Below, piece after piece: positions 26,201 through 54,709 of a DNA stretch of 64,000 nt (the stretch's first letter is position 1; the number at the start of each line of letters is the position of its first letter). The notes under the pieces were generated by a model, which was given only the letters and a program-made list of their open reading frames with translations, was not told the origin of the DNA and ran no database searches. The position numbers and the translations under genes were made by a program. The DNA is from Glaucostegus cemiculus (lineage: Eukaryota), in assembly GCA_976551045.1 (NCBI GenBank), contig CDPCPM010000604.1, forward strand, positions 1,364,001 to 1,428,000, given 5' to 3'.

Positions 26201-29200
26201 TTGTAGTTATGGAACTTTGAGGAGGGATTCCAAAATGAGGTAAATGTCAGTCTCACATATAACACCATAACACTGGTGTGAGAGTTGTCCCTGGCACTCG
26301 TGTTGTATGGAGGCTGCACTGTCATTAAGCGGGTGGGTATTCCATGTGTGGGCTTCGGATTGGAATCTTGAAGTCTGCTTTTCTCTGCGCTCTGTGGATG
26401 TGCTGGAAGCTTGGAACTAGTGTTGAGATTTTTTACCATTTCCACATCACGCTGACAGACTCGCACCCTATACCCCTTTTAGCCACATTTAACCCCATTT
26501 GATTTGAGGATATAATGAAAACTATTCCTGGGGAATAGCCACGTTCCCAAGTCATATAAGGAAGGACAGATTGATGCAGAGGGTGCACATTAGAACATAA
26601 AACCCCTGATCAGAGTGGAACTGAGTGATGGGACTAGAGGTGGGCTAGAGGATAGGTCGGTGGATTGACTGGGCAAATGCTGCCCCTGAGGTGGAGAGAG
26701 TCGAGCTCTGTGACCACGGAGGACAGGCTGCAATGGGTATTTCCCAGAGGGAAGACTCCAACTGGGACTGAGATGCAGTAATCAGTCCAAATTGTGTCCG
26801 GTGTAAGGCTGGTGTTTGAGGTTAATGTTGGATGACTCAACCTACCCCCACAGGACTTGCCATTCCTGTCTGTTGTGGGGAGCACTTCTGCCTCTGCCTG
26901 ATAGTTGTGGGTTCAAATCCCGTGCCAGAGTACGTGTGATGCCCCGGGGGAGTGCTGCTTTGTTGGAGGTACAGTTTTCCCCACCCCACCCCACCCCACC
27001 AGATAGACATTACGATGAAGTTCCTCCTGCTCTCTCAGTTGGATTTAAGACCCCATGCACCATTTACCCAGCGCCCTGCCCAACATCCCTATCACCTGAC
27101 CATCATCGGTGCCAGTTCCCCATCGCCCGCAATCCCCCGACCTTTCAAATACTTATCCATCTCCACCTTAAACGCATCCAATGATCCGGCCTCCACCTCC
27201 CTCGAGGGCAGAGAATTCCAGAGGTTCACCCCCCCCTCTGAGGGAAGACATTTCTACCCACCTCAGTTTTAAATAACCGGCCCCTTATCTTGTAACCATG
27301 TCCCCTTGTTCACGACTCTCCCACGCCTGGAAACATCTCAACATTGACACTGCTGCCCTCTGAGGGCTAGAAGAATGTTTGAATAAGGTCACCCCGCATT
27401 CTTCTAAACTCCGAGGAATACCGAACCACACTGTCCGGCCTCTCTGAATAGGACAAACCCTCTCGTCCCAGGAATTACCCCAGTGAATCTCCTTGGGACT
27501 GCCCCCAATGTTACTGTGTCTTGTTATAGGTAAGTTGGGGGCGGGGGGAGGCTGCTGAGCCATGCTCAGTACTCCAGGTGTGGCCTCACCTACACCCTGT
27601 ACAACTGGAACACAACCTCCCGATTCTGAACCTCCAACCTCTTTGCAATATTAGGGGCGGCACAGCAGTGTAGCGGTTAGTGTCACACTCTTACAGCGCC
27701 AGTGACCCAGGTTCAATTCCCACCACTGTCTGTAAGGAGTTTGTACGTTCTCCCTGTGACTGCGCGGGTTTCCTCCGGGTGCTCCGGTTTCCTCCCACAT
27801 TCCAAAGACCTACGGGTTAGTAGGTTAACATGGGTGTAATTGTGGGCCGTTGGTCAGGAAGGTCCTAGTACCGTACTGTGTAGGTAAAGTTTTAAAAAAA
27901 GGGCGGCATGTTGTTTGCCTCCTTCGCTGTGTGGGACCTGCCGGCTCAGCCCAACCCACTCCGTCCAAAGGCAATAGGAAGGAGGGAATTTTAATCCGCA
28001 ACCCTCTCCCACCCCTGCCCACTCCTGACCCACACAATTCCCCCCACCCTTCACTCCCCACCCACACATGCACATTTGCCTCTGTCCCCCTCTCCCCACC
28101 CACACTCCCCATCCCCCAGTCTCCTCCCCACCCCTCTCCCCACCCTTTCCCCTCACATTCCCCACCCTTCCCCCTCCCCACAGTCAACACCCCTCTACCC
28201 CTCCCACCCTACTGACTCTCCGAACCAACATTAGGAAAATATCTCGTCTCATCCCATGACCAGGGTTCGGACAATCAGGAACGACCGCGGATAGGACATC
28301 CCAACCCTCTCCGACTCCACACAACTGCCTGCAAAGCCCTTCGGCCCATCGCTCGGAGAGGATGCACCCGGTACTATCATACTTACAGCTTTCCCAGGGG
28401 GCCCCGGGGGGCCGGCAGGTCCAGGAAATCCGATCAGACCCTGCGGGAGAACGGGAGAGTCAGCTCCAAGGTAGCGGACGGGTCCCTGTGATGGTCACTC
28501 AGTCTGCACCATCAGCGCGTCAGTGACCCAACAGACTTCCACCCCGTCACTGGGTGTCCACAGGGAGGGAGAGAGGGTTCCCCTCGAAGACCAGGCCAAG
28601 CTCCGGAATTCCCCCGGAAGCTCCCCGTATCCCTCCAGCAACGTGTCCCGTGGGTAGTTCCCTGCTCACTGGGTCGGCCGTCGTGGGTTCACATCCCACT
28701 CCGGGACCTGAGCACCTGCGGGGGTGGGTGGGATGGGGGTGGGTTCCTGTACGACCCTGGACCAGTGGAGGGAAGGCCCCCCCGCCTCACTGGGGTGTGG
28801 GCAGGAACGACCACTCACCACGGTTACACAGTCTGGTGCATGTCCTTCAGGAGACTACCGGTTACTGGGGGTAGAACCAGCCCCTGTCAACCTTAACCCT
28901 TACCTCCCAGTCAAAGTTAACCCTTCCCCTACTGGCCCTTAGGGCCGAGCGGCCTACGGGAGGTCACTGTGCTCAACTGGATGCTGCATTTTTTACAACG
29001 GTGACCACACTTCAGATTGGGACGATTTCATTGGCTGTGGGGATTTTGGGATGGTGAAGGGCGCTGCATAAATTCAGCTCCTGCTTTTATCTCCTCCTCG
29101 GAGGCATTTCTTAAAACCACTACTCGCGCCCCCCCCCCCCCGCTCCCTCCCTGCTTCCCCAACCCCCACCCAACACCCCTGCCCCTTCCCGGGGCACTGG

Positions 29201-36403: not shown

Positions 36404-39400
36404 CAGGATTTACACACAACACAGCAGTGTTCATACACACACACACACACAGCAGGATTTACACACACACAGCGCACTGCTCCACGAACTGTCACCCGTT
36501 CACCTCTCACTGCTACACAGTAATTATCCAGTCGGCATAAACCTTTCCAGGTGGAATTTGACAGGGGGAAGGTGGGGCTTCCTCTGGCTGACGGATGGAG
36601 ACCGGTACACCGAGAGCGCCCGCTCACCTTGAATCCGGGCATCCCAGGAGGGCCGGCTGGACCAGCGGGGCACATTGCCGGGCACTGCAGAGAGGTGGGC
36701 AGAGGGAGGAAGTCAGAGTTAGTCACTGTAAGTTGCTCAATCAATTTCAGAAATCAGTATCAATAACCAAACAGTCATCAATTCAAATCAAAAATCCACT
36801 GCTCTCAAGTAACAAACTATTAGCTGTCAAACAATATCAGAAATCAATCACTGTCAGCAATCAATCAACTACTGTTGTCAATTAGTAATTGTTGTCAATC
36901 AATAACAGTGATTAACAATCATTGTCAATCAACATCCACTGTCAATCATTACCAGTCACGTAAGATGTCAACCAATGTCAGCTGAGCACTCATCTCATGA
37001 TGACGACTGTTCACTGACCCTGTGGGGTTTTGGCATGAAAGGTGTTGGGGCTGTTCTGGCAGGCTGGGGCAGGCGGTGTTTAGTCATCCCCAAACTTCAC
37101 CTGATCAGCTGTACATCCAGGACGAGGAGGGGTTGACAGCCGGCACAGCTGGCACAGCTGTCCCTCCACTCAACCACTGGATTCCACACGGATCTCAAGA
37201 GCAAAGTCTGCTCCTGTTGGGATTCCTCCGCTGTGATCCCTGAGATGGGGCAGGGATTTGGGTGGGGTGCTGGTTACTGACCTGGAGTTGGGATGAAGGA
37301 GGTTCACTTACTTAACTTGAAATTATTTTAATGTCTTAAATATTTATTGATCTGTAATACATTTTATTTTTATAAAGGGTTAAGAGTTAACATCTTACAT
37401 TTCGATTGAAAGCATTTACTATAGTTTTTAAGGGTCTCTGTAGATCAGACCTGAAACCTCTCACAAAGCCTTCAGTTTCTATTTTTTTGACACGTGGCAC
37501 AGAGGGTAGCGCCACCACCTCACAGCGCCAGAGATCCAGGTTCAATTCCGACCTCTGCCGCTGTCCGGGTGGAGTCTGCACGTTCTCCCTGTGACCACAT
37601 GGGTTTCCCCCGGGTCCTCTGGTTTCCTCCCACATCCCAAAGACATGTGGGTCGGTGGGTTAACTGACTGCTGTAAACAGCAGCAGGTGAGTGGTAGAAT
37701 TTGGGGAAGAGTTAATGGGAAAATGGTGAGAATAAAACCGGTGCAACACACACAAGATGCTGGAGGAACTCGGCAGGTCAGGCAGCATCTGCAGAGAGAA
37801 ATAAACAGTCAACGTTTCGAGTCAAAACCCTTCATCAGGACGTTGACTGTTATTTCCCTCCACAGATGCTGCCTGACCTGCTGAGTTCCTCCAGCACTTT
37901 GTGTGTGTTGCTCCAGATTCCAGCATCTGCAGAATCTCTTGTGTCTGAGAACAAAATGGGTTAAGGTAGGATCAGCGTAAAGTGGGTGCTTGATGTTTGG
38001 GGCAAACTTGGTGGGCGGATGGTCTGTAGGACTCTACGAGGTGGCTCAGCCTCTCGCAGTTTCCAGCGTAGGAGCAGATCTGTCCACTGACTGCCCAACA
38101 CTGGAATTGGGGGACCCAGCACAATTGAAGGCAAACTTCTGGACTGGGTTAGACTGGACGTGGAGAAGGTGAATCCAGGTAGCAGATCAAACTGAGAACC
38201 ATCTGATTCAGAAAATAAAGGCTGGCAGATGGTATGTTGGCCTTTATAACTTGAGTACTAATGTTCTTTAATTGTCTAGCGCCTTGTCAAGACAACATCT
38301 GGAACATTGTGGACAGTTTTGGTCACCCTGCCTGTAAGTGAGAGAGGGAGTGGAGCAAAGGTTCGCCGGCCTGGTGCCTGGTGCGGTGGGGTTGCCTGTG
38401 AGGGAGATTGAGTAGATTGGGCCTGTGTTCTTCAGGGTTTAGAAGAAGGAGATGATCCAATTGAAATTTTTAAAAATCCTTACAGGACTCGACAGGATGG
38501 AGACGGGAGGCTGTCTCCGCTGGCTGGGGAGTGTAGGACGGCGGGTCACCGTCTCAGAATAAGGGGTGGGCTGTTCAGGACACGGATGGGGAGAGATTCA
38601 TTCACACAGAGGAATCCTCTGCCCTGGAGACCTGTGGTGGCTCAGTCACTGGGATCGTTCCAAACGGAGACCGATAATTTTCTGGATATTAAGGGAATTT
38701 CGGGATGTGGGGATAATGCAGGAGAATAGTGCTGAGGTAGATCAGCCGGGGATGATGGAGCAGGCTCTGGGGACTGGATACCCACTCCTGCTTCCATATC
38801 TTATGTTCTTACATTCTGCCTTGTCTTTCCAGCTGTTAGGATCAGGACGCCAGCTCAGGTCACTCACAACGAACCTGCAGAAGGCGTTTACATGAGCGCG
38901 CGCACGCACAGAGCCAACGAACGGATTGGAAAACTTACAGAGAAGTCTCCACTTCCTTCTCCTGTATAAAGTCCGGGCTCACCCTAGGAGGTGAAAGAAA
39001 GGACAAGAATGAGGACAAGTTCTGGTTTAATTACATAAAATAAGTTTCATTTTCCAACCGTCACGCATCATCTCCCAGAAGACGAGGACTCATCCCAGGG
39101 TTCCGGCTCTCTGGGACTCAGCCAAGTGCTTGGACTGTGGGTGTGGATCTCGACACCAAGCACTACCCGGAAAGGCACTGAGGCCAACCTCAACAGGGTG
39201 AGGATGACCTCACAGGGTGGATCAGCTTCCTGATCTCCATTCCACTCAACCCATTCAACCTCTTCCCAACTGTTGCTGCCTCGGGAATTGCCTACTCCCG
39301 ACTGGTCTCCTCCATTCTGCTCAGTGTCAGAGTAATACTGCACGGAAACAGGCCCTTCGGCCCAACTCATCCATGCTGACCAAGTTCTCTACTGAGCTAG

Positions 39401-42400
39401 TCCCTTTTGCCTGAGTTTGGCCCACCTCCCTCCAAACCTTTCCTATCCATGAACCTGTCCAAATGCCTTTTAAATGTTGTAACTGTAGCCACCTCCACCA
39501 CTTCCCCCGGCAGCACGTCCCACACACCCACCACCCTGTGTGTGTGAAGACGTTGCCCCTCAGGTCCCTTTTAAATCTTTCCCCTCTCTAGAGTTAGACT
39601 CCCCTACCCTGGGGAAAAGACTGTGACCACCCACCTTACCCAGGCCCCTCAACAGAAAACGTTCCCACTTCTGACCTCACTGTATGATGACAGGAAAGTC
39701 TTCTGGAGATAGTTGGGCTTGGGACATTCCTCTGACAAACTCTTTCAGTGACAGCCTGTGGCTGGAACCATTAACCTCCAATACCCATCCAACTCTGTGT
39801 GAGTTGTGACCCCAACAACTGGAGTGTTTCCTCTCTTACCAAGGATCCATGATGCCACACCTTGTCTAACGGTTCCTTGTACTCCCCAGACCTGGGTGCC
39901 TGTGTCCCCCCTTGCACCCAGTGCTGTTCACCAGCGCCTGTGCTCACTGAACCAGACCGCCGCCTGCTTAAGTAAAGCCTCAATTTCAAATTTCTCTCCA
40001 GTGTTTCCAAATCCCTCCACGTCTGTAACCTCCACAACCCTCCGAAACATCTACTCTCCTCTGATCCTGACCTCCTGCACACCCCAAAATTAATTCACTC
40101 CACCTTCAGCAGGTCATCCCTCCTGCTGCCATGCCCTTGAGTTCTGAAGTCCTGAACCTCTCCTCGTCCACTCCCCCTCTCCTCCTTTAAGATCTCCCCC
40201 TCCTGACCGAGCGCCCCCCTCACCTGCCCCCAGATTTCTTCCCGTGGTTCTGTGCCAGATTCTGGCTGGTCATCGCTGTCACTGAGCTCGCTGGGGTGCC
40301 TGCTAAGTTCAACGTGCGAGCTGGACATGAGTGATTGTTGTGAGCTTCATTGAGGTGGGTGGCAGGTGTCCCCCAAACCTCCTCAGGTTGGCCCTGGTGT
40401 TTCAGACAAAGCGCACTGAATAAATGTCACACCTACCGGGGGGCCAGGGGGTCCTGGGGGCCCGGGAAGCCCAGGTAGACCGTCTTCACCCTGAGAGGAT
40501 ACAGAGAACGTTAACACTGGCAGGTTTACATCGTCCAAGTGGGCATGTTGCATTGGGAGTGGGCAGTGCCACTTAGCAACAACCCGTGCCCTCACTGAGC
40601 AGCCGTCTGCTCCGCCAAATTCTCCCCCACCGGGGGAGGGGACGGAGAGCCGAGCTGTTGGTCAGCGGGCGTTACCGAGTCGTGGCCCAGAGTGGGGGCC
40701 ACTCTCGCTGCAGCTCTGGGCTTTCGGGGTAGGGCGGGCGGGGACCCAGTGCAGGGGAAGGAGATTTGGCTCACTGGGAACACCCTCAGCCTTGAGGCAC
40801 ACGATCACGGCTTCAGGCCTTGCTGGAAACCCAGTCCGGGCCCGTGCAGTACTGAGGGAGTCCGGTCCCATCTGTATCCTCAGGAGGACGTGGATGGTCC
40901 CATATAACCTTAGGGGACGTGCACCCTGTCCGCTACATCCAACATCACCCAAAAAAAGACCCAATGAGCTTCACTTTGCTGCTCGTGGGAGCTCACTGTG
41001 CACAAAGTGGTTGCAGAATTTCCTTTCTGTTGAATACACATTGGGGAATTGGCTGTGGAACACTGGGAGTTCCTGCACTGGAGAAACACAAGGTCTTTCT
41101 TTCTGAAACACTCTGAGTAGTTTCTGCTCGGGGAGAACGTTTATCCGTGGGAGCAGGGTGAACAGGGGAAGCAGTGAAATGGCTCTCCCTCCTGCTGACG
41201 TCAATGTCATTGACTATGTTGAACCTCATTGGTGTTCCTCTCCCACTGACCTTCATCTTAGATTTGTTGGACTGACCTCCTGGGCCAGATTCACCAGGGC
41301 AGGGACCCTAAGTAGGGAGAAGGACCAGGTTCCCACACAGCCCCTGAAAGGGATGGAACTCATTGGACCAGGGGGGCTTTCAATCCACAGACTAAATCAC
41401 AACTTTGCCAGGGCACACCCTGCCTCACAAGGGTGAACAAGGGCAGCGGGGGTTCCCAGCAGGTTCCCCTCCAGCTCACACACACATCACCGGTCGTACA
41501 TCCTCACTGGGTCCAAATCCTGGAACTCCCTCCCCAGGGGCACATAGGGAGCACATTCACCAGGTGACTGCAGCCGAATGAGGCAGCTCACCCCCACCAT
41601 TGTAAGGGCAGGTAGGGATGGGCGACAATCGCTGGCCTTGCCGGTGGTGCCCAGATCTTGGAAGGCGAATAAAAGCAGGAGCCTTTGGGCAAGTGTGACC
41701 GTGTGTGGAATAGCCACAATATGTTGTAGGATATTGTTCACTTACCCTGGGGCCACTTGGACCCTGGGGACCTTCCAGTCCGATATCTCCTTGAGGTCCC
41801 TGGAGAAGTTTAATGCAAAAACAATGATTTTCATATTCAAACCATAAACCGTTTTCAGGCACAAATACCAGACAACATTGGGACCGTTATTTCCCAGAAC
41901 ATCCCAAATCCATTCACTGACCCCCCCGGTGCGCTGACCAACAGTGCGCTGACCCCTGGCATGCTGACCCACAGTGTGCTGACCCCCGGTGCGCTGACCC
42001 CCGGTGCGCTGACCAACAGTGCGCTGACCCACAGTGCGCTGACCCACAGTGCACTGACCCCTGGCATGCTGACCCACAGTGCGCTGACCCCCCGGTGCGC
42101 TGACCAACAGTGCGCTGACCCACAGTGCGCTGACCCCTGGCGTGCTGACACACAGTGCGCTGACCCCCGGTGCGCTGACCAACAGTGCGCTGACCCATAG
42201 TGCACTGACCCCTGGCGTGCTGACCAACAGTGCGCTGACCCACAGTGCGCTGACCCCTGGTGCGCTGACCCACAGTGCGCTGACCCACAGTGCGCTGACC
42301 CCTGGCGTGCTGACCCACAGTGCGCTGACCCCCGGTGCGCTGACCCCCCGGTGCACTGACCCCCGGTTCGCTGACCAACAGTGTGCTGACCCACAGTGCA

Positions 42401-45400
42401 CTGACCCACAGTGCACTGACCCCTGGCATGCTGACCCACAATGCGCTGAGCCCCGGTGCGCTGACCCCTGGTGCACTGACCCCCGGCATGCTGACCACCA
42501 GCAAGCTGACCCCCACTCTGATGACCCCCCCAGCCTGCTGACTCCCAGCACACTGACCCCTGGTACACTGACCCCCGGCACACTTAAATCTCCTCCCTCT
42601 CACCTTAAACCCATGCCCTCTTGTTTTTGATTCCCCTACCCTGGGGGAAAGATTCTGACCTCTACCCTGTCGTGCCTCTTGTGAAACCCCATCTGCCACA
42701 AGTCAGAATGGGCTTTCGAGAAACCGTTACCAGCTAACTGGATCGAATCAATTGAAAATGATCAATTAAATATAATCACAGACACATTGACATCAACAGG
42801 ACCAGGGCCAAATCCACTGTGGTCCATCTCAACAGATCCTGGCTTCGTAGGAGCTGTGTGGTGTGAGTGGCTGCACTGGTCCAGAGGACCAGATCCAGAG
42901 ATTTTAATTCACTTTAATTGCCCACCTCACTGCCACTCTGACCTGTCTGCAGCTTCCTGCGCTGTTCCAGGGCGACCCAACAAAAGCCTGAGGAACAACA
43001 CCTCACCCTCTGTCTGGGCACGCAGCAGCCAGCAGAACTCGATGTCGAGCGACAAGCTATCTGCTGGAGGAACTCAGGGGGTCAAGCAGCGTCTGTGGGG
43101 GGAGCATCTGTTGATGTTTCGGATCGAAACCCTGCATCAGGACTCAGTGTTGATTTCTCCAGATAACTTGCTCTTTCTCTCTGCTGAACTGGACATTTTG
43201 GCATCAGTTTGGCTCAGCTTTTCCTTTTTAAATCATTTTTTTTAATCCTTACTTTGTTGTGTGCCTGGGCCCAGTGGGTTCCCAACTAGCCAGGACATAC
43301 ATTGAACAGGGAATACAACCTCAGCAACATGTTACACAAATTAAAGAGCCTAACTGCCCTCTTACTGCCCCATTTCAGCCCCCTCAGGAGAAATTCCCAT
43401 TGTTCTGCCCATCCCTCTCCCCCACTTTACCTCAAATAACTTGTTATCTCTCCCACTTCTGGTGGAGAGTCCTGGACCTGAAACATTGGCAGTTTCTCTC
43501 TCCACAGACGCTGCCTGACCTGCTGAGTGTTTTCAGCTCGCTCTGTTTTCTGGAAGGATCAGTCACGGTGCCCTGAAGCTCCTGATCCAGTTCCCCACCC
43601 ACCAGGTTACACAACTGTACTGGATAAAGAGGTTATAAGAACCTCCTAATTGTGGTGCTGACTAACTGGAAACACACCACAGGTTCACCATGAACGTAAG
43701 GCAGTGGATACTCTGTCAGCCAACCAGGACAACAGTGTCCGTCACCCAGAGCTAACTCTGGCCTCCCTCCCCTGAGCTGCCCACAACCTGGACGTGTCAG
43801 TCAGAATGGAATCCTTCTCCGTTAACTGGGAATAGACGTTCCAGAGGTTTGATCACCCCTGCAGGGGCTCAACACTCCAGCTGTAAGGAGACTATATTTC
43901 CCTCAACTTGCACTAATTGCATTGTGGTTATTTTGTCATGTAAATTATGTGTAATTTATGTTAATTTAATTTTATGTAATTTAGTTTGTCATGCACTGTG
44001 CTGCTGTTACAAAGAGCTAATTCTTATGGCATTTATACCTTGAGTATGTATGCTCATGACAATAAACTTAAACTTGACACGTGAGAGAGAGAGAGAGAGT
44101 GAGAATGAGAGAGATTGAGGGAGAGATTGAGGGAGAGATTGAGGGAGAGATTGAGGGAGAGATTGAGGGAGAGATTGAGAGAGAGATTGAGAGAGAGATT
44201 GAGAGAGAGATTGAGAGAGAGATTGAGGGAGAGATTGAGGGAGAGATTGAGGGAGAGATTGAGGGAGAGATTGAGGGAGAGATTGAGGGAGAGATTGAGG
44301 GAGAGATTGAGGGAGAGATTGAGAGAGAGATTGAGAGAGAGATTGAGAGAGAGATTGAGAGAGAGATTGAGAGAGAGAGGGGGATTGAGAGGGGGATTGA
44401 GAGGGGGATTGAGAGGGGGATTGAGAGGNNNNNNNNNNNNNNNNNNNNNNNNNNNNNNNNNNNNNNNNNNNNNNNNNNNNNNNNNNNNNNNNNNNNNNNN
44501 NNNNNNNNNNNNNNNNNNNNNNNNNNNNNNNNNNNNNNNNNNNNNNNNNNNNNNNNNNNNNNNNNNNNNNNNNNNNNNNNNNNNNNNNNNNNNNNNNNNN
44601 NNNNNNNNNNNNNNNNNNNNNNNNNNNNNNNNNGTGGAAGGAAGCGGGAAGGAATAAACACAAGCATTGAACAGAGGGTTTGAATGGCCTCTGTGTAACT
44701 CCATGCACTGAAAACCAGAATTGCAGAGTGGTGCAAGAGGCATCAGCTCCACGTGGCTCCCCATCTCCTCCTCACACTGAGATCCACGTCCAGTGAAGCG
44801 CGCACTTACCGGGGGTCCGATCTCCCCGAAGGGTCCAGTCTCTCCAGGTTCCTCTGACTGAGGGAGGAAAACACCACAATGAGCTTCACGGTAATAACCC
44901 AGTGATCAGAATAACAGCCAGTCCATCAAAACTGGCTCAAACCCATTTCAACGCAGGCTACACCACTCTGACCATGGTCTTCCCGCTAGGCCCGAGCTCG
45001 TGAGCCATGTCAGGATGGTTGACTGTGACGGGCTTCACAACCAGGTAGGTGAAACCTCCTGTGGACGTGGTGGAGTCATGAGGAGAGAAGGACATCTAAA
45101 CCACCCCTGACCCAATGCAAGTGTTCTGAGGTTGGTCCCCATCAGATACTGAGCCTGTTGAACACCCTGGCCCGGGGACTGAGTGTTGTTCTGACCCAGC
45201 GGTTTGAGACTGCTCACACACAGTAGGCAGCACATTCACCTCCCATCAGAAACTTGTGGGTTCACGACCCACTCCAGGGACATGAACATCAAGTCTGGGC
45301 TGACCTTCCCCTATAGTGCCGACTGCACCATGGGAGGGGCAGTGAGGGAGGGTCACACTGTGGGGGGAGGCAGCTCTGAGGAAGTGTCACTGTGTGGGGG

Positions 45401-48400
45401 GGGGGTCGGTACTGAGGGAGAGTCACTGTGTGGGGGGGTCAGTACTGAGGGAGGGTCACACAATGGGAGGGGCAGTACTGAGGGAGTGTCACTGTGTGGG
45501 GGGGGTCGGTACTGAGGGAGGGTCACACGATGGGAGGGGCAGTGCTGAGGGAGTGTCACTGTGTGGGGGGGTCGGTACTGAGGGAGGGTCACACAATGGG
45601 AGGGGCAGTACTGAGGGAGAGTCACTGTGTGTGGGGGGTGTCGGTACTGAGGGAGGGTCACACGATGGGAGGGGCAGTACTGAGGGAGTGTCACTGTGTG
45701 TGGGGGGTGTCGGTACTGAGGGAGGGTCACACGATGGGAGGGGCAGTACTGAGGGAGTGTCACTGTATGGGGGGTGTCAGTACTGAGGGAGGGTCACATG
45801 ATGGGAGGGGCAGTACTGAGGGAGTGTCACTGTGTGGGGGGGTGGGTTGGTGCCGGTCAGCCTGTCTGCCTGTCTTCCGCGCTTACGTGCACGCGCGGGT
45901 GTCCCTGGAGAGGGAGCACGCGGTTTCCGCGGGCACCCTGGTCGAGTTCCGCGTGCGGTGGGCCCCAGGGGGTGTCGCGTGTGTCATGGATGGTGGAAAT
46001 GCGATTCTTATTTGATGTGTCGCGTGTTATGGGTTTAGTGTTGCGTGAGTTTTCTTTGTCGTAGTGTGCTTATTTTCCTGTAGTTGTGTTGTTGTCTAGT
46101 TTTCTTTTTGTATTAGATGTAGTACGTTGACACTGGTTGTCATTTCTGCAGTGCTTTTGTATGCTTTTAGTGAATAAATGTTGTATATTAAAAAAAGGGT
46201 GGGGGTCGGTACTGAGGGAGGGTCACACGATGGGAGGGGCAGTACTGAGGGAGGGTCACTGTGTGGGGGGGGCGGTACTGAGGGAGGGTCACACGATGGG
46301 AGGGGCAGTACTGAGGGAGGGTCACTGTGTGGGGGGGGCGGTACTGAGGGAGGGTCACACGATGGGAGGGTCAGTACTGAGGGAGGGTCACTGTGTGGGG
46401 GGTCGGTACTGAGGGAGGGTCACACGATGGGAGGGGCAGTACTGAGGGAGGGTCACTGTGTGGGGGGGTCACACGATGGGAGGGGCAGTACTGAGGGAGG
46501 GTCACTGTGTGGGGGGGTCGGTACTGAGGGAGGGTCACACGATGGGAGGGGTAGATTTGGGATGGGATGGGTGGTGATGTTACTGGGATACTCAGAGGGA
46601 CAGGCTGCCTTCTGATTGATATCGAAGAGCCTGTTCACCCCCTCTGTGGTGTAAGAGCCCACGGCACTTCATTCAGGGAAAACGAGGGAGGTATTGTGTC
46701 GCCAGCCAGTGTTTGTCTCGCAAACAACTGGACTCTGAGTTGTCTGCTCATCGCTGTGACACCAAGACCGGCGCAGACCCTCGGGGTAACCAGTGGTTCC
46801 ACCATGTTCAGGGGGTTACTCACCACTAGTAAGTCCGCTCCGGGGAGTCCGGGTGGTCCTGGGTCTCCCTGCCAAGAAACAACGTTACCAGCTCACAGTC
46901 AACGTCGTTAGGCTGCTGTCCCCTCCAGCCCCACCCTACACAGAGTTCACCCTCTCACTCCAGAGTAGGGTTCGAATCCCGCTCCCGTCCCCGAGCCGTA
47001 CTCCAGGCTGAGGGTCCTGGCGGGGTACAGAGGGGGTCACCACTCTGTTTGACTGGCTGAGAATTAAACTGAGGCCCCGTCGGCCTCTCAGATCATTCAG
47101 CTGGATCACTGGAACGAGGGCAGTGTTCCCCCACACTCCCTCAGCACGCGCTAGCCCTGAATACCTCTGAAAGCAGGTGAACTGGTAGTTTTCCCAATCC
47201 CTCCCTTGTGGGATCTTACTGTGCACCCTTTTGCCCCATGCTTCTGCGGGGGCTGCACCTCAAAAGTCCTCAGTTGCTGAGGGGATTCTGTCCAGTGCCC
47301 AGGCACTGTATTGGAGCCATTGACAAGACCATGAGGGTTGGGCTGAGGCTGAGTGTGGGGCACTGCCCACTACCTCACACACAGCGGTGTGTGAGCTGCA
47401 GTCACACCTCGTCGGTCAAGCGTCAGGGTGACACTAGGTCCCTGAAGGGTGTCCCTCTGTGAGTCAGCAAGCAACAGCCCACCCAGAGTGCCGTGTGCGG
47501 TGTGAGGTCCAGATATTGCAGTGGGGGCATTAAACCAGTGCATTTCTGCAACCAGGTGGTTAGTTCACAAGTTCACAAGACAAGGGAGCAGAAGTAGGCC
47601 ATTCAGCCCTTCGAGTCTGCTCCATGAGAAGAGAAAAGATAACATGTCTATCCCCAATTTCCAGCCTGATCCCCATATCCCTTGATACCTTGATTAATTA
47701 GGTACCTAACCAACTCCCCTTTAAATGCCCCCACTGACTGAGCCTCTACAGGAGGCTCTACAGGAGTTAGCAGTTAACTTAGAGAACATAGAACATTACA
47801 GCACAGTACAGGCCCTTCAGCCCACGATGTTGTGCCGACATTTTATCCCGCTCTAAGATCTATCTAACCCTTCCCTCCCACATAGCCCCCCATTTCTCCA
47901 TCATTCATGTGCCTAAGAGTCTCTTAAATATCCCTAATGTATCTGCCCCCACAACCCCTGCCAGCAGTGTGTCCACACACCCACTACTCTCTGTGTAAAA
48001 AAACTTACCCCCGACATCCCCCTTATACCTTCCTCCAATCACCTTATAATTACGTCCCCTCACGTTAGCCATCGTTGCCCTGGGCCAATGTCTCTGAAGT
48101 AAGGAGCACACACCTCCGCTGGGGCTCCCAGCACTGCCACCATTACTCAGAAGAGGATGTGTGGGGTCTGCCGCCCCCTTGAACCTGCGGTGCTTTGGGT
48201 GAAGGTGCTCCCTCAGTGCTGTTGGGGAGCGGGGTTGCAACTTAGACCCAATGACGATGAGGGAACGGCGATCTCTTTCCACGGCGCATCATTCACTTGG
48301 AGGGGAAGCTCCTGTTGGAGATGGTTCCATGTGTCCACTGTCCCAGTGTTTCTGGCTGAAGGCGGCCGTGGGTCTGGGACGGAGCTGATGGAACAGCGGC

Positions 48401-51400
48401 CATGCCGGTGGGTGAGGCTGTGCTGCAGATTCTCCCATCCGGGCAGGCGGAAGGTGTTCCAGCACACCCCTGACTGTAGCCTTGGGGGTGTCAGGAGGGG
48501 AGTCACTCACCACAGGATCCCCAGCCCCTCAGCTCCTCCTGCAGTCACGGTGTTTATGCAGCTGGTCAGTGGTAGCCCCAGGTGGGCTTCTACCACTGTG
48601 GGGACCTGGATGGTGGGGACCCGGTGATGGTAATGCATTAAACACCAAGGGCAGGTGCTTGGACTCTCTTGTGATGGAGCTCGTCATACCTTGTCATTGT
48701 ATGTAGATGGTGGGACCGTTACTCACTGTCAGTCAGCAGATTGACAGCTGCCATCTGAAACTTCATGAACAAAATTTTACTTTTGGTAACAATGACCCTG
48801 CCCCCATGGTCCCGGCAGTTAATCACCCCTCTCCTGTACCCCCGCTCCCGCTTCCCACCGTGTTGGAGTTGAAAGCTGGAGGAGGAAGATGCCAGGGGCA
48901 CTTAAGGACAGCTTCTACCCCACTGTGATAAGACTATCGAACGGTTCCCTTATACAATGAGATGGACTCTGAACTCAGGATCTACCTTGTTGTGACCTTG
49001 CTGTCATGATTCTGAGTACTGGCCCTTGATATGGTTCCTTAGATGCCTCATTGTACAGCACATGGATTCCATGCTGGACTGATTGCACAATGACACACAC
49101 CTGAGCCCCATCAGGGGCCTAGCATTAGTACCTGGGTTTCTCTAGCACTAGTTGCCAGAGGATTGGTTAACCTTGAAGATTCAGTTTGGTTCCTAGCTGC
49201 TTAGAGTGGTCTACTCCAGAGCAGTCCTGTGTTCTCTAGTCCTGCTTGAAGATTCCGTTTGTGTTGGGATTACTACTCAGATCTCCGAGGCAAGATTTCC
49301 TTTCAGTGTTGCCTGTGTTTGTTCCTGAGGAAGTATCCTGACTCCAGTCTTGTACCAGTGTGCTGCATTTGGGTTCTCTGTGAGCTTGCTCTTCAATCAA
49401 CATTGTGACACTTGCACCTTATTGCACTGCACTTCCTCTGTAGCTGTGACACTTTACTCTGTACTGTTACTGTTTTTACCTGCATTACATCAATGCACTC
49501 TGTACTGACTCAATGTAACTGCACTGTGTCATGAATTGACCTGTACCATTGGTTAGTAAGACATTTTTCACTGGACCTCGGTAGAAGTGACAATAATAAA
49601 CCAATCCCAATACCAAAGAAGAGTTCTGATCTGGGGTCCTGCTGTAAACACTGGATTTAAACCAGCCAGCCCCACCACATCTCAGCATCAGTGGGTCTGG
49701 ACACAACAACGGCCTGGAGATCCTGCAGAAGGTTGACCTCACGCCTCGCCGATGGCCCCCAAACGTTCTCACACAGTGCCCGCTGCACGGTCTGTGTTCA
49801 CGTTTAGTCACGTTGTCCGCTGGGGGAGGAGGGCACCGTGTTCCTACAGTCGAGACATCTGCAACCTCTTCCCTCCCCTAAACCCCACCCTGGGGGGATA
49901 CGATGCCCGGACAGCCAGTTGTTTAAAGGTCAGAGCGTACCGTTAGAATCGGACTTACCCTTTCACCCCGGAACCCGTCAGCACCCGGTGGCCCGTCAGG
50001 TCCGGGTAAACCCTGCGGAGAGAAAAACGAGTCAGAAGTTGGGCTCAGTTCACCCTCCCGCCCACTTCCCCCACAGCCTGTGGAGCTGCTGCCCCACAGC
50101 TCCAGGGACCCCGGTTCGATACCGACCTCCACCGCTGCCTGTGTGGAGTTTGCACGTTCTCCCTGTGACTGTGTCGGTTTCCCCTGGGTGCTCCGGTTTC
50201 CTCCCACATCCCAATGACGTACGGGTTGGCCATTTAATTGGCCGCTGTAAACTGCCCCTAGTATAAGGTGGCACAACATGGTGGGCTGAAGGGCCTGTAT
50301 TGTGCTGTATTATGGTTCCATAAGTGGGTGGGGGGGTGTGTGGAATCAGGGTGGAGTTGATGGGAGTGAGAGAAAGAGAATAGGTTACAGGGATATAAGC
50401 GGGGGAATGGGACTGATGGGATGGCTCTGAGAGCTGGAATAGGCACGATGGGCCAAATGGCTCTTTTTCTACTGGAATAGAATACCTGAAATACACAAGA
50501 TAATTTTAAGTTACGCCCCTTGGCTGGGACTCCCCCAATACTACATGTGATAAAGTCCGGGGTTTGCATAGATTTAAGAGAGTGAGAGAGTTTTCTTGCC
50601 GAAGACGGAGGGGAGATTTAATGGATACGATAGCGTCTTTCAAGAGGCTGTTAGATAGGTACATGGAGCTAAGCAAGATAGAGGGCTATAGGTAAGCCTA
50701 GTAGTTTCTAGTGTAGGAACAAGTTCGGCACAGTTTTGTGGGCCAAAGGGCCTGAATTGTGCTGTAGGTATCTATGTTCTATGATATCGAAAGATGAGGG
50801 GTGTGGACAGAGTGAACAGTGGGAGGCTGCCCCTGTTGGCAGAGGGGTGAAGGACTAGAGGATCCAGGGATAGACTAAAGGGAATGAGACCTCAGAGTGA
50901 CATGAGGGAAAGTTTTTGATGCAGCACGTACTTGGAATCTGGAACATACTGTCCGCAGCTTCCACTGTGGCCTTAGAGTCAGAGTCATAGAGTACCCACC
51001 GAACATTGAAAGGCCTGGATAGAGTGGACGTGGAGAGGATGTTTCCAGCAGTGGGAGAGTCTCAGACCAGAGGGCACAGCCTCAGAATAGAAGGACGTCC
51101 CTTTAGAACTGAGGTGAGGAGGAATTTCTTCAGCCAGAGGGCGGTGAATCTGTGGAATCCATTGCCACAGATGGCTGTGGAGGCCACGTCACTGGGTGTA
51201 TTTAAAGCGGAGGGTGATAGGTTCTTGATTAGTGAGGGTGTCAAAGGTTACAGGGAGAAGGCAGGAGAATGGGGTTGAGAGGGAAAAATAAATCAGCCAT
51301 GATCGAATGGTGGAGCAGATTCGATGGGCCAAATGGCCTAATTCTGCTCCTATGCCTTATGGTCTTATAGTCACACAGCATGGAAACAAGCCCTTCAGCC

Positions 51401-54400: not shown

Positions 54401-54709
54401 TATGGTGTGAACATTGAACGGTGGCCCATTCTCCGCTCACCTGAAGCAGGTCTGGATTTCAGGAGGAAGGCAGAGGGTTGAACTGGTACTCACGTCTATT
54501 CCTGGAAGTCCTGGCAGGCCTGGGACTCCAGAAGGTCCTGGGTCTCCAGGTTCACCTGGAAAGCCCTAGAAGAAAATCAAAGTGACAGGTCACCCCGTAA
54601 AATGGTGGATGTCATTCGGCAAATCTCCACAGAGAAACTCTCCAAATTGTTCTAATTTATGTCATCAACTTACCGGTGGACCTGGTAAGCCTGGTGGACC
54701 AGGTTCGCC
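2204..54709 (-). CDS. COL9A3: Collagen alpha-3(IX)-like gene (FACIT), partial: 21 exons equivalent to COL9A3 exons 3-23 (COL3, NC3, most of COL2); 1104 nt / 368 aa
   Basis: Manually read Gly-X-Y exons, all AG/GT bounded and phase 0. Sizes 36,72,54,45,48,54,54,45,57,54x8,45,54,54,54 match the COL9A3 pattern except exons 6, 7 and 10. Diagnostic peptides: CPAMCPAGPAGPPGMPGFK, GPRGLRG, GRNGAPGEKGP, RGFQ. Ortholog versus paralog is unresolved. Confidence 0.88.
2820..3235 (+). mobile_element. CR1/HER1 LINE 3' end with a 46-bp tandem duplication (3112-3203)
   Basis: GERFNRDLRGNFFTQRAVGVWNEL; cttagatgggaatgttggtcagcatggaccagttgggttgaagggc x2. Confidence 0.85.
5355..5863 (+). mobile_element. CR1/HER1 LINE 3' end, young
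   Basis: Uninterrupted ORF2 C-terminus (VQRRFTRLIPG...FFSQRVVNLWNALP), 3' UTR and (ctattgt)n tail. Confidence 0.92.
6610..7126 (+). mobile_element. CR1/HER1 LINE 3' end inserted into a Deu-SINE remnant
   Basis: YCMQFW...RFTRMLPGL; gggctgaagggcctgtt and gttctat tail. Confidence 0.85.
9488..9925 (+). mobile_element. CR1/HER1 LINE 3' end
   Basis: LGLYSLEHRRLRGDLNEVY...FFTQRVVRIWNELP; gggccgaagggcctgtt. Confidence 0.88.
11220..11450 (+). mobile_element. 3' end of an older LINE family (CR1/L2 group); related copies near 18150-18530(+), 41480-41660(+), 48190-48690(-), 59610-60310(-), 62170-62350(-)
   Basis: Recurrent tcctggaactccctccc...caccaccttctcaagggca...ggatgg.caataaatgctgg motif seen several times in the window. 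Confidence 0.6.
12430..12483 (-). CDS. COL9A3: exon 22 equivalent (54 nt) GELGDSGDMGERGPRGAD
   Basis: Acceptor ttcacttcacag, donor GTAAGT. Confidence 0.9.
12880..13550 (-). mobile_element. Penelope-like fragment (endonuclease C-terminus remnant plus terminal repeat pieces)
   Basis: Minus strand about 13170-13290 reads LEEQHLIFQLGTL*PSGLSIKFSNFR*; flanking cagatgctgcctgac-type repeats. Confidence 0.65.
13705..13758 (-). CDS. COL9A3: exon 21 equivalent (54 nt) GSRGPMGAPGPQGPPGSV
   Basis: Acceptor ccccacacag, donor GTAAGT. Confidence 0.9.
13907..14228. repeat. Minisatellite, unit about 26-28 bp (cccagacccagtacaggtgtacctgg)
   Basis: About 11-12 degenerate copies; a related unit lies at about 12550-12582. 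Confidence 0.9.
14912..15255. repeat. Minisatellite 43 bp x 8
   Basis: gtgtcgtgcactggtggtgttattgaccgtgtcgtgcaaggct, near-perfect, ending 6 bp from exon 20. Confidence 0.95.
15262..15306 (-). CDS. COL9A3: exon 20 equivalent (45 nt) GLPGKPGHKGAGGEQ
   Basis: Acceptor ttttttaacctcag, donor GTGAGC; 45-nt size as expected. Confidence 0.92.
15575..15945 (+). mobile_element. Rex1/Babar LINE 3' end
   Basis: DPHHPGCALSSMLPSGRRYRSLK followed by an AT-rich UTR ending aataaacttgaac. Confidence 0.75.
16183..18006 (-). mobile_element. Penelope-like element (decayed RT plus GIY-YIG endonuclease) with inverted terminal repeats
   Basis: 16651-16923(-) reads VGETKCRLRNRFAKRLRSV...HFN...KLEEQSLIFHLGSLQPKG; RT-like DDCIGAASCTRAEL...FHPALKFTW near 17570-17680(-); about 16183-16310 is an inverted copy of about 17870-18006. 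Confidence 0.85.
18965..19107 (+). mobile_element. Penelope-derived terminal repeat (short non-autonomous copy)
   Basis: gaagggtctcgacctgaaacatcgactgt...cagatgctgcctgacctgccgagttcctccagc. Confidence 0.75.
19870..20291. repeat. Minisatellite with a 40-bp monomer organised as an 80-bp dimer
   Basis: gtgtgctcta/atgtgctcta recurs every 40 bp; near-identity at 80-bp period (19991, 20071, 20151, 20231). Confidence 0.9.
20343..20396 (-). CDS. COL9A3: exon 19 equivalent (54 nt) GDPGRNGAPGEKGPVGQP
   Basis: Acceptor ttcttgtgttacag, donor GTGAGT; GRNGAPGEKGP is the same as human. Confidence 0.94.
20529..20582 (-). CDS. COL9A3: exon 18 equivalent (54 nt) GIPGRDGRDGNPGTNGEK
   Basis: Acceptor tatttcag, donor GTAAGG. 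Confidence 0.92.
20846..21253. mobile_element. Solo LTR copy 1 (408 bp), 5-bp TSD CAGAC
   Basis: TGTCA...TGACA termini, CAGAC on both sides, about 95% identical by eye to 49002-49410. Confidence 0.85.
22389..22442 (-). CDS. COL9A3: exon 17 equivalent (54 nt) GKIGPRGLPGVAGQKGGP
   Basis: Acceptor tcttgttacag, donor GTAAGT. Confidence 0.92.
22520..22890 (+). mobile_element. Rex1/Babar LINE 3' end
   Basis: VVDTAQHITETSLPSMDSVYTSHCLGKAASIIKDPTYPGHSLL...RLKDSFYPTVIRLLN. Confidence 0.85.
22890..23215 (-). mobile_element. Probable L1/Tx1-type 3' UTR (AT-rich) truncating the Rex1 UTR
   Basis: Minus strand is T-rich and ends aataaaaagtttgaaaaagaaag. Confidence 0.4.
23405..23830 (+). mobile_element. 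SacSINE1/Deu-SINE-like remnant; others near 1850-2100, 8070-8625, 26880-27110, 45240-45330, 46960-47090, 52020-52190, 52740-53150(-), 54280-54410
   Basis: gagtcaggaagttctgggttcaagtcccac head here; Deu-like ttatctggtc...gtggg.gcttgctgtg...ttcattggctg motifs in sister copies; assignment from recalled consensus. Confidence 0.55.
23855..24250 (+). mobile_element. V-SINE (HE1-like tRNA-derived SINE)
   Basis: A/B-box head, V domain ggagtttgcacgttctcccc...ggtttcctcccacatcccaaag. Confidence 0.85.
24426..24479 (-). CDS. COL9A3: exon 16 equivalent (54 nt) GDAGPKGHIGFPGTKGSR
   Basis: Acceptor ttgattccag, donor GTAAGT. Confidence 0.92.
25813..26136. other. Assembly gap (324 N) in intron 15
   Basis: Run of n. 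Confidence 1.
27110..27650 (-). mobile_element. CR1 LINE fragment, decayed
   Basis: ggcagagaattccagaggttcacc, cttctaaactcc, agtactccaggtgtggcctcacc (reverse complement of VRPHLEY). Confidence 0.75.
27653..27890 (+). mobile_element. V-SINE (HE1-like)
   Basis: gggcggcacagcagtgtagcggttag...ggttcaattccc...ggagtttgtacgttctccc. Confidence 0.88.
28387..28440 (-). CDS. COL9A3: exon 15 equivalent (54 nt) GLIGFPGPAGPPGPPGKA
   Basis: Acceptor ttctcccgcag, donor GTAAGT. Confidence 0.93.
29285..29338 (-). CDS. COL9A3: exon 14 equivalent (54 nt) GPRGLRGPLGKPGPAGDR
   Basis: Acceptor ttcactccgcag, donor GTGAGT; GPRGLRG...GDR as in human. Confidence 0.93.
29508..30175 (-). mobile_element. CR1/HER1 LINE 3' fragment
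   Basis: MLQLYQMLVRPHLEHCAQFW...; RDLRGNLLTQRVVGTWNELP. Confidence 0.9.
31085..31305. mobile_element. Penelope-derived fold-back (inverted) element nested in a SINE remnant
   Basis: Inverted gcagcatctgtgg-type and cacagatactgcc arms; minus strand has ctgatgaagagtcttcaacctgaaag. Confidence 0.65.
31945..32192 (+). mobile_element. V-SINE (HE1-like), full length and young
   Basis: CpG-rich tRNA head, V domain, CR1-derived tail gggccgaaagggcctgtt, A-rich end. Confidence 0.92.
32520..33290 (-). mobile_element. CR1/HER1 LINE fragment with a nested 5'-truncated V-SINE (about 32735-32831, +)
   Basis: QVDRAVKKAFGTPAFISQGTEYRSREV; nested gacgtatgggtaggttaatttgggg...cgctgtaaataaaaaa. Confidence 0.85.
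33670..34060 (+). mobile_element. CR1/HER1 LINE 3' end
   Basis: PRVGESKTRGRRFKVRGERLKGNLRGKF; gggccgaagggcc tail. Confidence 0.85.
34277..34330 (-). CDS. COL9A3: exon 13 equivalent (54 nt) GDPGHPGVPGFPGPVGLQ
   Basis: Acceptor aatttcag, donor GTAGGA; GDPG...VGLQ as in human. Confidence 0.93.
34434..34735 (+). mobile_element. V-SINE (HE1-like)
   Basis: gctgcctcactgctccaggg...gtggagtttgcgcgctctccc...ggtttccccccgcatccca. Confidence 0.82.
35050..35103 (-). CDS. COL9A3: exon 12 equivalent (54 nt) GHTGHKGERGEPGKIGAK
   Basis: Acceptor ctcttcccttccag, donor GTAACT. Confidence 0.93.
35640..36475. repeat. (CA)n-based compound micro/minisatellite, unit (ca)n-gcagtgtt
   Basis: Many cacacagcagtgttca units with variable CA tracts; agagcaggatttac variant at the right end. 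Confidence 0.95.
36628..36684 (-). CDS. COL9A3: exon 11 equivalent (57 nt) CPAMCPAGPAGPPGMPGFK (NC3 cysteines, COL2 start)
   Basis: Acceptor ctctctgcag, donor GTGAGC; CPxxCP motif of collagen IX NC3. Confidence 0.95.
37494..38030 (+). mobile_element. V-SINE interrupted by a Penelope-derived fold-back element (37738-37945)
   Basis: V domain at about 37565-37645; insert flanked by tgagaataaaa / tgagaacaaaa (candidate TSD). Confidence 0.85.
37806..37841 (-). ncRNA. Minimal type-I hammerhead-ribozyme-like motif in a Penelope terminal repeat
   Basis: Minus strand: GUC-CUGAUGA-A-GGGU-UUUG-ACUC-GAAAC-GUU-GAC (conserved core, stem II, short stem I). Confidence 0.55.
38215..38810 (+). mobile_element. 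CR1 LINE 3' fragment, old
   Basis: gtatgttggcctttata, catctggaacattgtggacagttttggtc, cctgcttccatatcttatgttctta tail. Confidence 0.7.
38939..38983 (-). CDS. COL9A3: exon 10 equivalent (45 nt) GEPGLYTGEGSGDFS, first half of NC3
   Basis: Acceptor tttctttcacctcctag, donor GTAAGT; in frame; positionally equals human GHPGVLPEGATDLQ. Confidence 0.88.
39325..39650 (-). mobile_element. CR1/HER1 LINE 3' end
   Basis: aaacaggcccttcggcccaac...ttgcccctcaggtcccttttaaatc. Confidence 0.85.
40437..40490 (-). CDS. COL9A3: exon 9 equivalent (54 nt) GEDGLPGLPGPPGPPGPP
   Basis: Acceptor tcctctcag, donor GTAGGT; matches human GPSGLPGLPGPPGPPGPP. Confidence 0.93.
41746..41799 (-). CDS. COL9A3: exon 8 equivalent (54 nt) GPQGDIGLEGPQGPSGPR
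   Basis: Acceptor cttctccag, donor GTAAGT. Confidence 0.92.
41915..42582. repeat. 15-bp minisatellite (gcgctgacc-cacagt/cccggt/aacagt/cctggc)
   Basis: About 44 units sharing a ctgacc core with interspersed variants. Confidence 0.95.
42965..43550 (+). mobile_element. Penelope-like remnants (endonuclease C-terminus plus inverted terminal repeats)
   Basis: gaggaacaacacctcaccctctgtctgggc (EEQHL.F.LG-like); inverted tgctggaggaactcag...cctgcatcaggac; ccacagacgctgcctgacctgctgag. Confidence 0.6.
44083..44428. repeat. 12-bp purine repeat (GAGATTGAGRGA)n
   Basis: Blocks of gagattgaggga / gagattgagaga running into the gap. Confidence 0.95.
44429..44633. other. Assembly gap (205 N) in intron 7
   Basis: Run of n. 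Confidence 1.
44810..44857 (-). CDS. COL9A3: exon 7 equivalent (48 nt) SEEPGETGPFGEIGPP
   Basis: Acceptor ttttcctccctcag, donor GTAAGT; downstream tandem AGs would give 44 or 42 nt alternatives. Confidence 0.8.
45322..46552. repeat. G-rich minisatellite (about 31-34-bp monomer, alternating dimer) interrupted by a Tx1 insertion
   Basis: gtactgagggag-ggtcacacgatgggaggggca / gtactgagggag-tgtcactgtgtggggggg units. Confidence 0.92.
45847..46196 (+). mobile_element. L1-clade Tx1-like LINE 3' end (5'-truncated)
   Basis: CLPVFRAYVHARVSLEREHAVSAGTLVEFRVRWAP...stop, T-rich UTR, AATAAA, poly(A), candidate TSD gggtggg. Confidence 0.75.
46824..46868 (-). CDS. COL9A3: exon 6 equivalent (45 nt) GDPGPPGLPGADLLV
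   Basis: Acceptor tttcttggcag, donor GTGAGT; four Gly-X-Y triplets plus LLV; no GT at the canonical 36-nt position. Confidence 0.82.
47780..48085 (-). mobile_element. CR1/HER1 LINE 3' end
   Basis: RGRNYKVIGGRYKGDVGGKFF; (agaacat)n tail. Confidence 0.85.
48900..49615 (+). mobile_element. Rex1/Babar 3' end split by solo LTR copy 2
   Basis: cttaaggacagcttctaccccactgtgataagacta before the LTR; cttgcaccttattgcactgcact...gacaataataaaccaat after it. Confidence 0.8.
49002..49410. mobile_element. Solo LTR copy 2 (409 bp), 5-bp TSD CTTGC
   Basis: TGTCA...TGACA termini, CTTGC on both sides, same orientation as copy 1. Confidence 0.85.
49959..50012 (-). CDS. COL9A3: exon 5 equivalent (54 nt) GLPGPDGPPGADGFRGER
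   Basis: Acceptor tttttctctccgcag, donor GTAAGT. Confidence 0.93.
50075..50470 (+). mobile_element. V-SINE (HE1-like) with a nested CR1-tail fragment
   Basis: V domain at about 50140-50220; gggctgaagggcctgtattgtgctgta insert. Confidence 0.8.
50615..50783 (+). mobile_element. CR1 3' end, same subfamily as 58431-59343
   Basis: gtctttcaagag...gataggtacatggag...gggcctgaattgtgctgtagg...tctatgttctatg. Confidence 0.8.
51005..51368 (+). mobile_element. CR1/HER1 LINE 3' end, tail-to-tail with the next copy
   Basis: KGLDRVDVERMFP...FFSQRAVNLWNPLP. Confidence 0.9.
51368..51665 (-). mobile_element. CR1/HER1 LINE 3' end
   Basis: catggaaacaagcccttcagcccaa...ctctagttcttgattccccaaccctgggg. Confidence 0.82.
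54494..54565 (-). CDS. COL9A3: exon 4 equivalent (72 nt) GFPGEPGDPGPSGVPGLPGLPGID
   Basis: Acceptor tttcttctag, donor GTGAGT; 72 nt is the alpha-3-type size; ends GLPGLPGID. Confidence 0.93.
54674..54709 (-). CDS. COL9A3: COL9A3-like exon 3 equivalent (36 nt) GEPGPPGLPGPP
   Basis: Acceptor ttttaacag, donor GTAAGT; matches human GEAGPPGLPGPP. Confidence 0.93.

Follow-up and report, generated by a model that had tools for sequence, protein, structure and literature searches.

A predicted G9G interruption in the COL3 domain of a COL9A3 orthologue from Glaucostegus cemiculus

In collagen IX, the NC2 domain selects the chains and sets their stagger, and a disulfide joins alpha-1 to alpha-3 (PMC5126661); chain selection by NC2 is treated likewise in a review (PMC12562938). 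The COL3 domain extends into the perifibrillar space, away from the collagen II fibril (PMC12564068), and in human alpha-1(IX) and alpha-2(IX) its imperfection is of the G1G type (PMC11923368, supplement 4). Interruptions that differ between the chains of a heterotrimer are known, and kinks with semi-structured loops have been proposed for them (PMC11923368). By the definition of that source a G9G interruption has nine residues between glycines and at least two flanking triplets, and by our count by eye it accounts for 8 of the 393 human collagen interruptions given there. Here we describe a collagen gene on the minus strand of a 64,000-nt stretch of Glaucostegus cemiculus DNA (the window; assembly GCA_976551045.1, contig CDPCPM010000604.1, here C604:1364001-1428000), in which exons 6 and 7 are enlarged and predict a G9G break in COL3. 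The window covers exons 3 to 23 of this gene, which is the COL9A3 orthologue on the sequence evidence given below; the exon numbering follows human COL9A3. All exon boundaries, those of the 100 comparison exons included, are sequence predictions.

Exon 6 (46868-46824) is 45 nt long, reads GDPGPPGLPGADLLV, and ends at the donor GTG/GTGAGT. Exon 7 (44857-44810) is 48 nt long, follows the acceptor ...ccctcag, reads SEEPGETGPFGEIGPP, and ends at the donor CCG/GTAAGT. These exons, and the seven-residue break that they create, read just as the original prediction had them. In the predicted protein the seven residues lie outside the triplets and form a G9G interruption, with 27 triplets before it and 16 after it against the at least two that the definition asks for. 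The genome holds four collagen IX genes, alpha-1 (contig C215), alpha-2 (C106), alpha-3 (C604) and a fourth (C59), and exons 6 and 7 measure 36+24 nt in alpha-1 (G4G), alpha-2 (G1G) and the fourth gene (G4G). The two exons of the window gene together are thus 33 nt above those of its three paralogues, and the segment that they encode has 31 residues, compared with 20 in all three, in agreement with the claim that a canonical 20-residue segment had been lengthened; a comparison with COL9A1 and COL9A2 of the species had been proposed as a check. The pattern typical of COL9A3, which does not define orthology, is 36+24 nt with G1G; the window gene has 45+48 nt with G9G. Among proteins from other species, paddlefish and trout fourth-type chains carry G4G (four of the six proteins examined; two shark models have no in-frame copy of the segment), and two frameshifted amniote alpha-3 models, when read in the shifted frame, would fit an eight-residue G1G segment. 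Because the three paralogues and the human and amniote chains carry a short G1G or G4G flaw, the enlargement of exons 6 and 7 is, as judged from these sequences, specific to alpha-3 within this genome and likely derived. The features concerned, in window coordinates and in the order of the gene, are as follows.

54674..54709, minus strand: COL9A3 exon 3, 36 nt, 4 triplets (human COL9A3 exon 3 encodes 12 aa; PMC12564068)
54494..54565, minus strand: exon 4, 72 nt, 8 triplets (63 nt in alpha-1 and alpha-2 of this genome, 72 nt in the fourth gene)
49959..50012, minus strand: exon 5, 54 nt
46824..46868, minus strand: exon 6, 45 nt, 4 triplets plus LLV (36 nt in the paralogues)
46824..46832, minus strand: the 9 nt (LLV) by which exon 6 is extended; the 36-nt position lacks a GT, and a weak alternative GT is formed by the last codon
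45343..46551, no strand: minisatellite in intron 6, unit of 33/66-69 bp, two blocks around an unrelated insert; no collagen-like exon
44810..44857, minus strand: exon 7, 48 nt, SEEP plus 4 triplets (24 nt in the paralogues)
44846..44857, minus strand: SEEP, second half of the break, containing a weak AG at +4 (out of frame, 14/100) and at +6 (in frame, 0/100)
44082..44617, no strand: period-12 simple repeat in intron 7, passing through a stretch of N and leaving no room for an exon
41746..41799, minus strand: exon 8, 54 nt
40437..40490, minus strand: exon 9, 54 nt
38939..38983, minus strand: exon 10, 45 nt, end of COL3 and NC3 with the acidic Ser-Gly motif EGSGD
36628..36684, minus strand: exon 11, 57 nt, NC3 cysteine pair and start of COL2

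The splice-site matrices rest on a further 100 collagen IX exons predicted in the same genome, with leave-one-out scores as the reference. The exon 6 donor scored 8.5 bits and its acceptor 8.2 bits, with 27 and 35 of the 100 reference scores, respectively, at or below these values; for exon 7 the acceptor scored 10.6 bits (72/100) and the donor 13.2 bits (98/100). At the canonical positions, exon 6 has TT at 36 nt and exon 7 has no AG at the 24-nt position, and the sole splice pair that yields 20 residues combines a GC donor with an acceptor at -12.6 bits. As far as the sequence goes, the enlarged exons are real features and no usable splice pair is predicted to recover the 20-residue segment. 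The gap at 44429-44633, which the original prediction had asked to have closed, is filled in the genome copy by letters that continue the period-12 repeat and contain neither AG nor GT on the coding strand, so this run of N holds no exon. The idea of a hidden 24-nt exon, in that run or elsewhere in introns 5 to 7, was rejected, there being no further collagen-like mini-exon there. As a control, 1,328,000 bases (both strands of the four collagen IX regions and their flanks) were screened for four terminal Gly triplets with good splice sites; one unlisted candidate was found, on the coding strand inside the COL9A1 gene, and it represents an unlisted exon and not a false one. Two further ideas were discarded: a one-base assembly error at the 36-nt donor, because with the first T changed to G the site still scores below all 100 real donors, and an origin of exon 7 as a duplicate of another exon, the best alignment giving 25 matches in 48 where the background median is 22. 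That a strong donor follows LLV would be compatible with a 9-nt insertion and with a shifted donor alike. The intron 6 minisatellite is split by a GC-rich insert (window 45843-46200) that ends in AATAAA and a run of A and has the look of a retroposed element.

Tandem in-frame sites are present on both sides of the break as had been described, a GT that precedes the exon 6 donor by 3 nt and an AG that follows the exon 7 acceptor by 6 nt, but they are weak. The alternative donor, which would leave 42 nt of exon 6, scores -3.7 bits, and the alternative acceptor, a GAG that would leave 42 nt of exon 7, scores 0.2 bits; a G at acceptor position -3 occurs in none of the 100 comparison exons. Because both sites score below all 100 comparison sites, forms lacking V or SE are probably negligible to judge by these scores, and the isoforms that had been foreseen find no support. 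The acceptor at +4 is plausible by its score (5.4 bits, 14/100), and its use would be out of frame unless joined with a donor at +4 (-3.2 bits).

Several lines of evidence bear on the identity of the gene, which had been predicted to be COL9A3. It has the COL9A3 layout, COL3-NC3-COL2-NC2-COL1-NC1 with a short N terminus and no NC4, and its coding exons are all in order, with exon 2, a candidate exon 1 and the remaining 3' exons located in neighbouring stretches; in the assembly of 2.85 Gb, the exon 7 region matches once. In a search with the last exon, the best 8 of the 32 matches were Col9a3-type by name or sequence. NC2 is identical at 25 of 35 positions to two reptile alpha-3 chains (P0003 and P0004) and at 21 of 35 to two mammal chains (P0006 and P0008), its cysteine is retained both here and in alpha-1 of the same genome, and the best collagen IX chain of PDB 9WXP for the NC2/COL1 exon is alpha-3(IX). 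OGFR exons, recognized by tblastn and Pfam PF04664, lie directly upstream on the same strand, and the turtle model P0004 is an OGFR-COL9A3 fusion, matching this neighbourhood. Because of the C-terminal exon matches, the NC2 identity and the adjoining OGFR, the window gene is, on sequence evidence, the COL9A3 orthologue. At the 5' end, exon 2 (L012:3933-4010, minus strand) has two acceptors 6 nt apart, giving 78 or 72 nt, and opens with a broken triplet stretch, GDP-TAP-L. The candidate exon 1 (L012:5802-5867, minus strand) encodes a signal-peptide-like sequence of 22 residues; it is situated 1.8 kb ahead of exon 2, between that exon and OGFR. An RRM gene, which we take to resemble poly(A)-binding protein, lies further upstream of OGFR on the minus strand. 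A second run of N (window 25813-26136) falls in the intron between the predicted exons 28387-28440 and 24426-24479, where the expected exon series is complete.

The original prediction held that 11 extra residues would throw the chain out of register with its partners. The count of 11 stands, but the loss of register was overstated: six of these residues are two extra triplets in exon 7 and five are loose. Over exons 2 to 9 there are 27+16=43 triplets in alpha-3, 29+14=43 in alpha-2, 26+13=39 in alpha-1 and 35+13=48 in the fourth gene. The alpha-3 total equals that of alpha-2, so the net non-helical excess is five residues, and because the totals are unequal, the COL3 lengths of the chains of this species already differ. 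Counted by eye, 29 Gly positions precede the flaw in human alpha-3 (PMC11923368, supplement 3), compared with 27 here. The first COL3 exon of alpha-1 (C215:5816739-5816792) has 54 nt and 4 triplets; since human alpha-1(IX) exon 8 encodes 25 aa (PMC12564068), the COL3 domain of alpha-1 has a shortened N-terminal end here.

We consider it moderately probable that the alpha1-alpha2-alpha3 trimer is otherwise normal and that its COL3 arm has a broadened and offset kink, with the change tolerated and one main splice form made. This reading draws on the exon sizes, the splice-site scores, the sizes in the paralogues, the triplet counts and the conservation of NC2. Chains would be chosen at NC2, giving a normal trimer, and the NC3 cysteines would re-register the three chains. 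The collagen triple helix zips from the C to the N terminus. The helix would therefore extend 13 to 14 triplets N-ward to the flaws of alpha-1 (G4G) and alpha-2 (G1G), with alpha-3 continuing to 16 triplets before its seven loose residues. The three flaws, no more than about three triplets apart, would merge into a single flexible zone, locally unfolded and with a small loop of alpha-3, and beyond this zone 26 to 29 triplets per chain would re-form helix. A loop or second hinge, as originally proposed, is thus the likely structural result predicted from the sequence. The change is likely to be tolerated because COL3 projects away from the collagen II fibril. In PDB 9WXP, a collagen II/IX/XI fibril, the first piece of alpha-1(IX) begins inside COL2 and our NC3 query matched no chain, which fits a mobile COL3 arm.

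Several observations weigh against this reading. In humans, in-frame changes in COL3 (skips of the 12-aa exon 3 and one Gly missense) cause multiple epiphyseal dysplasia (MED; PMC12564068, PMC4236474), and COL3 length is therefore not neutral in humans; these lesions sit near the N-terminal end of COL3, not at the exon 6/7 imperfection (PMC12564068, PMC4236474). A fourth collagen IX chain is present and could alter the trimer. The splice model was trained on predicted exons, and an in-frame GT or AG within 6 nt accompanies only 11 of the 100 comparison donors and 9 of the 100 acceptors, so that having both together is uncommon. Furthermore, the last-exon search returned 32 matches of which none was named from a cartilaginous fish, the alpha-3 matches being partial or partly frameshifted models, and an alignment search with seven exon frames gave 24 weak, unrelated matches and no orthologue from a relative.

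Other searches were directed at the break and at related chains. A pattern for NC3 matched only the window gene. Among 150 listed representatives there was no full-length collagen IX, and none of 201 proteins exceeded 26% Gly; ordinary collagen IX chains therefore seem to be absent from the protein collections searched. Of two pattern scans of metagenomes one gave no match and the other 4, none of these with SEEP upstream. Among 19 sequencing runs listed in a search for the gene, none contained half of the sequence words sought, and four of them, all from other species (three contig sets and one raw-read run), gave 0 records for the exon 7 region, which is uninformative as to splicing. The parts of the PMC11923368 supplements that were searched contain no SEEPG or GADLL motif. 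In the literature searched, with most subscription journals outside its scope, we found neither a long break in the COL3 domain of collagen IX nor a shark COL9A3 structure; long GnG interruptions as such are already known. The segment with the break may already be present, without having been remarked on, in public gene models of relatives.

It is also conceivable, if unlikely, that selection maintains the break throughout the cartilaginous fishes as a functional element of their collagen IX (a second hinge, or a ligand or protease site), with the two extra triplets of exon 7 balanced by the loss of two in exon 2. Exons 6 and 7 do have good splice sites and clean triplets beside the break, the triplet total stays at the 43 of alpha-2, the start of exon 2 is broken, and there are 27 Gly positions before the flaw where human alpha-3 has 29. 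However, the searches turned up no orthologue from a relative, and the decay of exon 2 is equally explained by the short alpha-1, which with 26 triplets before its flaw leaves those alpha-3 triplets unpaired anyway. We see a slim chance that the main transcript differs from the one predicted, exon 6, exon 7 or both being skipped (without either of them the helix would be unbroken) or the tandem sites being used. Both exons are in phase 0, so that any skip stays in frame, an alternative GT and AG lie within 6 nt, and exon 7 begins with T, as do only 4 of the 100 comparison exons. Yet the main sites score within the range of other exons and the in-frame alternatives below all 100, introns 5 to 7 hold no other candidate exon, and the three paralogues keep both exons.

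That alpha-3 no longer fits alpha-1 and alpha-2, and forms a homotrimer or pairs with other partners such as the fourth, NC4-bearing chain in place of alpha-1, is very doubtful. The existence of a fourth gene with NC4 and with alpha-3-like NC2 and NC1 would suit such a switch, but that gene too has 36+24 nt and G4G and offers no better fit. Moreover, the chain-selecting NC2 is conserved (25/35 identical to reptile alpha-3), the cysteine pair between alpha-1 and alpha-3 (PMC5126661) is kept in both chains, and folding, which proceeds from the C terminus, would pass NC2 and NC3 and reach the COL3 flaw only late; the homotrimer and partner changes of the original prediction thus go unsupported. 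That the enlarged exons reflect an assembly error or a dead copy is scarcely credible: there is a single assembly and exon 7 has repeat-rich surroundings, but the exon 7 region has one genome match, the other exons are all open and in order, two exons 2 kb apart are both changed in frame, and a one-base change gives no usable canonical donor.

The fourth collagen IX gene (C59:9691600-9785000) has an NC4-type exon, a 72-nt exon 4, a 45-nt exon 5 and alpha-3-like NC2 and NC1. Its NC4 exon had 18 protein matches, from sharks (89%), sturgeon, paddlefish, bichir, coelacanth and teleosts, with no tetrapod among them; the identity of this paralogue exon reaches 89% with two sharks and no more than 70% with bony fishes, in keeping with a cartilaginous fish. 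The matches are named collagen alpha-1(IX) or are unnamed, and a separate COL9A1-type gene lies on C215. The fourth gene and the C215 gene possibly correspond to the zebrafish col9a1a/col9a1b pair. On the strand opposite to the fourth gene, and just downstream of it, there is a leucine-rich-repeat reading frame (L035:2686-3504, plus strand).

An acidic serine motif is present in all four NC3 exons: EGSGD in the window gene (38939-38983), EGSAD in C106:9809838-9809885, and DGSGE in both C215:5777591-5777635 and C59:9748025-9748066. The paddlefish fourth-type chains have EGSGD or DGSGD in NC3. As the carrier of chondroitin sulphate, a review names alpha-2 only (PMC12564068, in the portion drawn on). 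The fourth gene and the NC3 Ser-Gly motifs may deserve as much attention as the break. One could imagine, tentatively and with considerable doubt, that cartilaginous-fish collagen IX comprises four chains, all capable of carrying glycosaminoglycan at NC3, with a conserved second COL3 hinge in alpha-3 that changes its reach off the fibril in permanent cartilage, and that in tetrapods the fourth chain, most of the Ser-Gly sites and any hinge of this kind subsequently disappeared.

Provided that the splice model is correct, the gene offers a natural test of the length mismatch that is tolerated by the COL3 arm, where all human collagen IX MED mutations cluster. It would then show that a gene can stay intact with a G9G break and a two-triplet offset at its built-in imperfection, and so point to the loss of binding sites toward the N terminus of COL3, and not to length mismatch itself, as the cause of MED. 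With one gene in one assembly, and long interruptions being common in other non-fibrillar collagens, the break is at present a curiosity for specialists.

Compared with COL9A3 generally, the window gene has the same exon order and sizes except in exons 2, 6, 7 and 10, the same NC3 cysteine pair, NC2 and NC1, no NC4, OGFR upstream, the same location of the break in COL3, and 43 triplets over exons 2 to 9. It differs in having G9G in place of G1G, in placing the break 16 and not 14 triplets from the end of exon 9, in the decay of the first two triplets of exon 2 and in the acidic Ser-Gly motif of NC3. The other three collagen IX genes of this genome (COL9A1, COL9A2 and the fourth) are built on the same exon skeleton and likewise have one imperfection in COL3, where exons 6 and 7 meet, but they keep 36+24 nt; human alpha-1(IX) and alpha-2(IX) have G1G at the same site (PMC11923368). 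The G9G length class is shared with the long GnG interruptions of non-fibrillar collagens, among which unequal interruptions in heterotrimers have been described (PMC11923368). Like the MED in-frame COL3 deletions of human COL9A1, COL9A2 and COL9A3, the break changes the length of one chain inside COL3. Those deletions, however, remove 12 to 49 residues near the N-terminal end and cause disease, whereas the break adds residues at an existing imperfection in a gene that is apparently intact.

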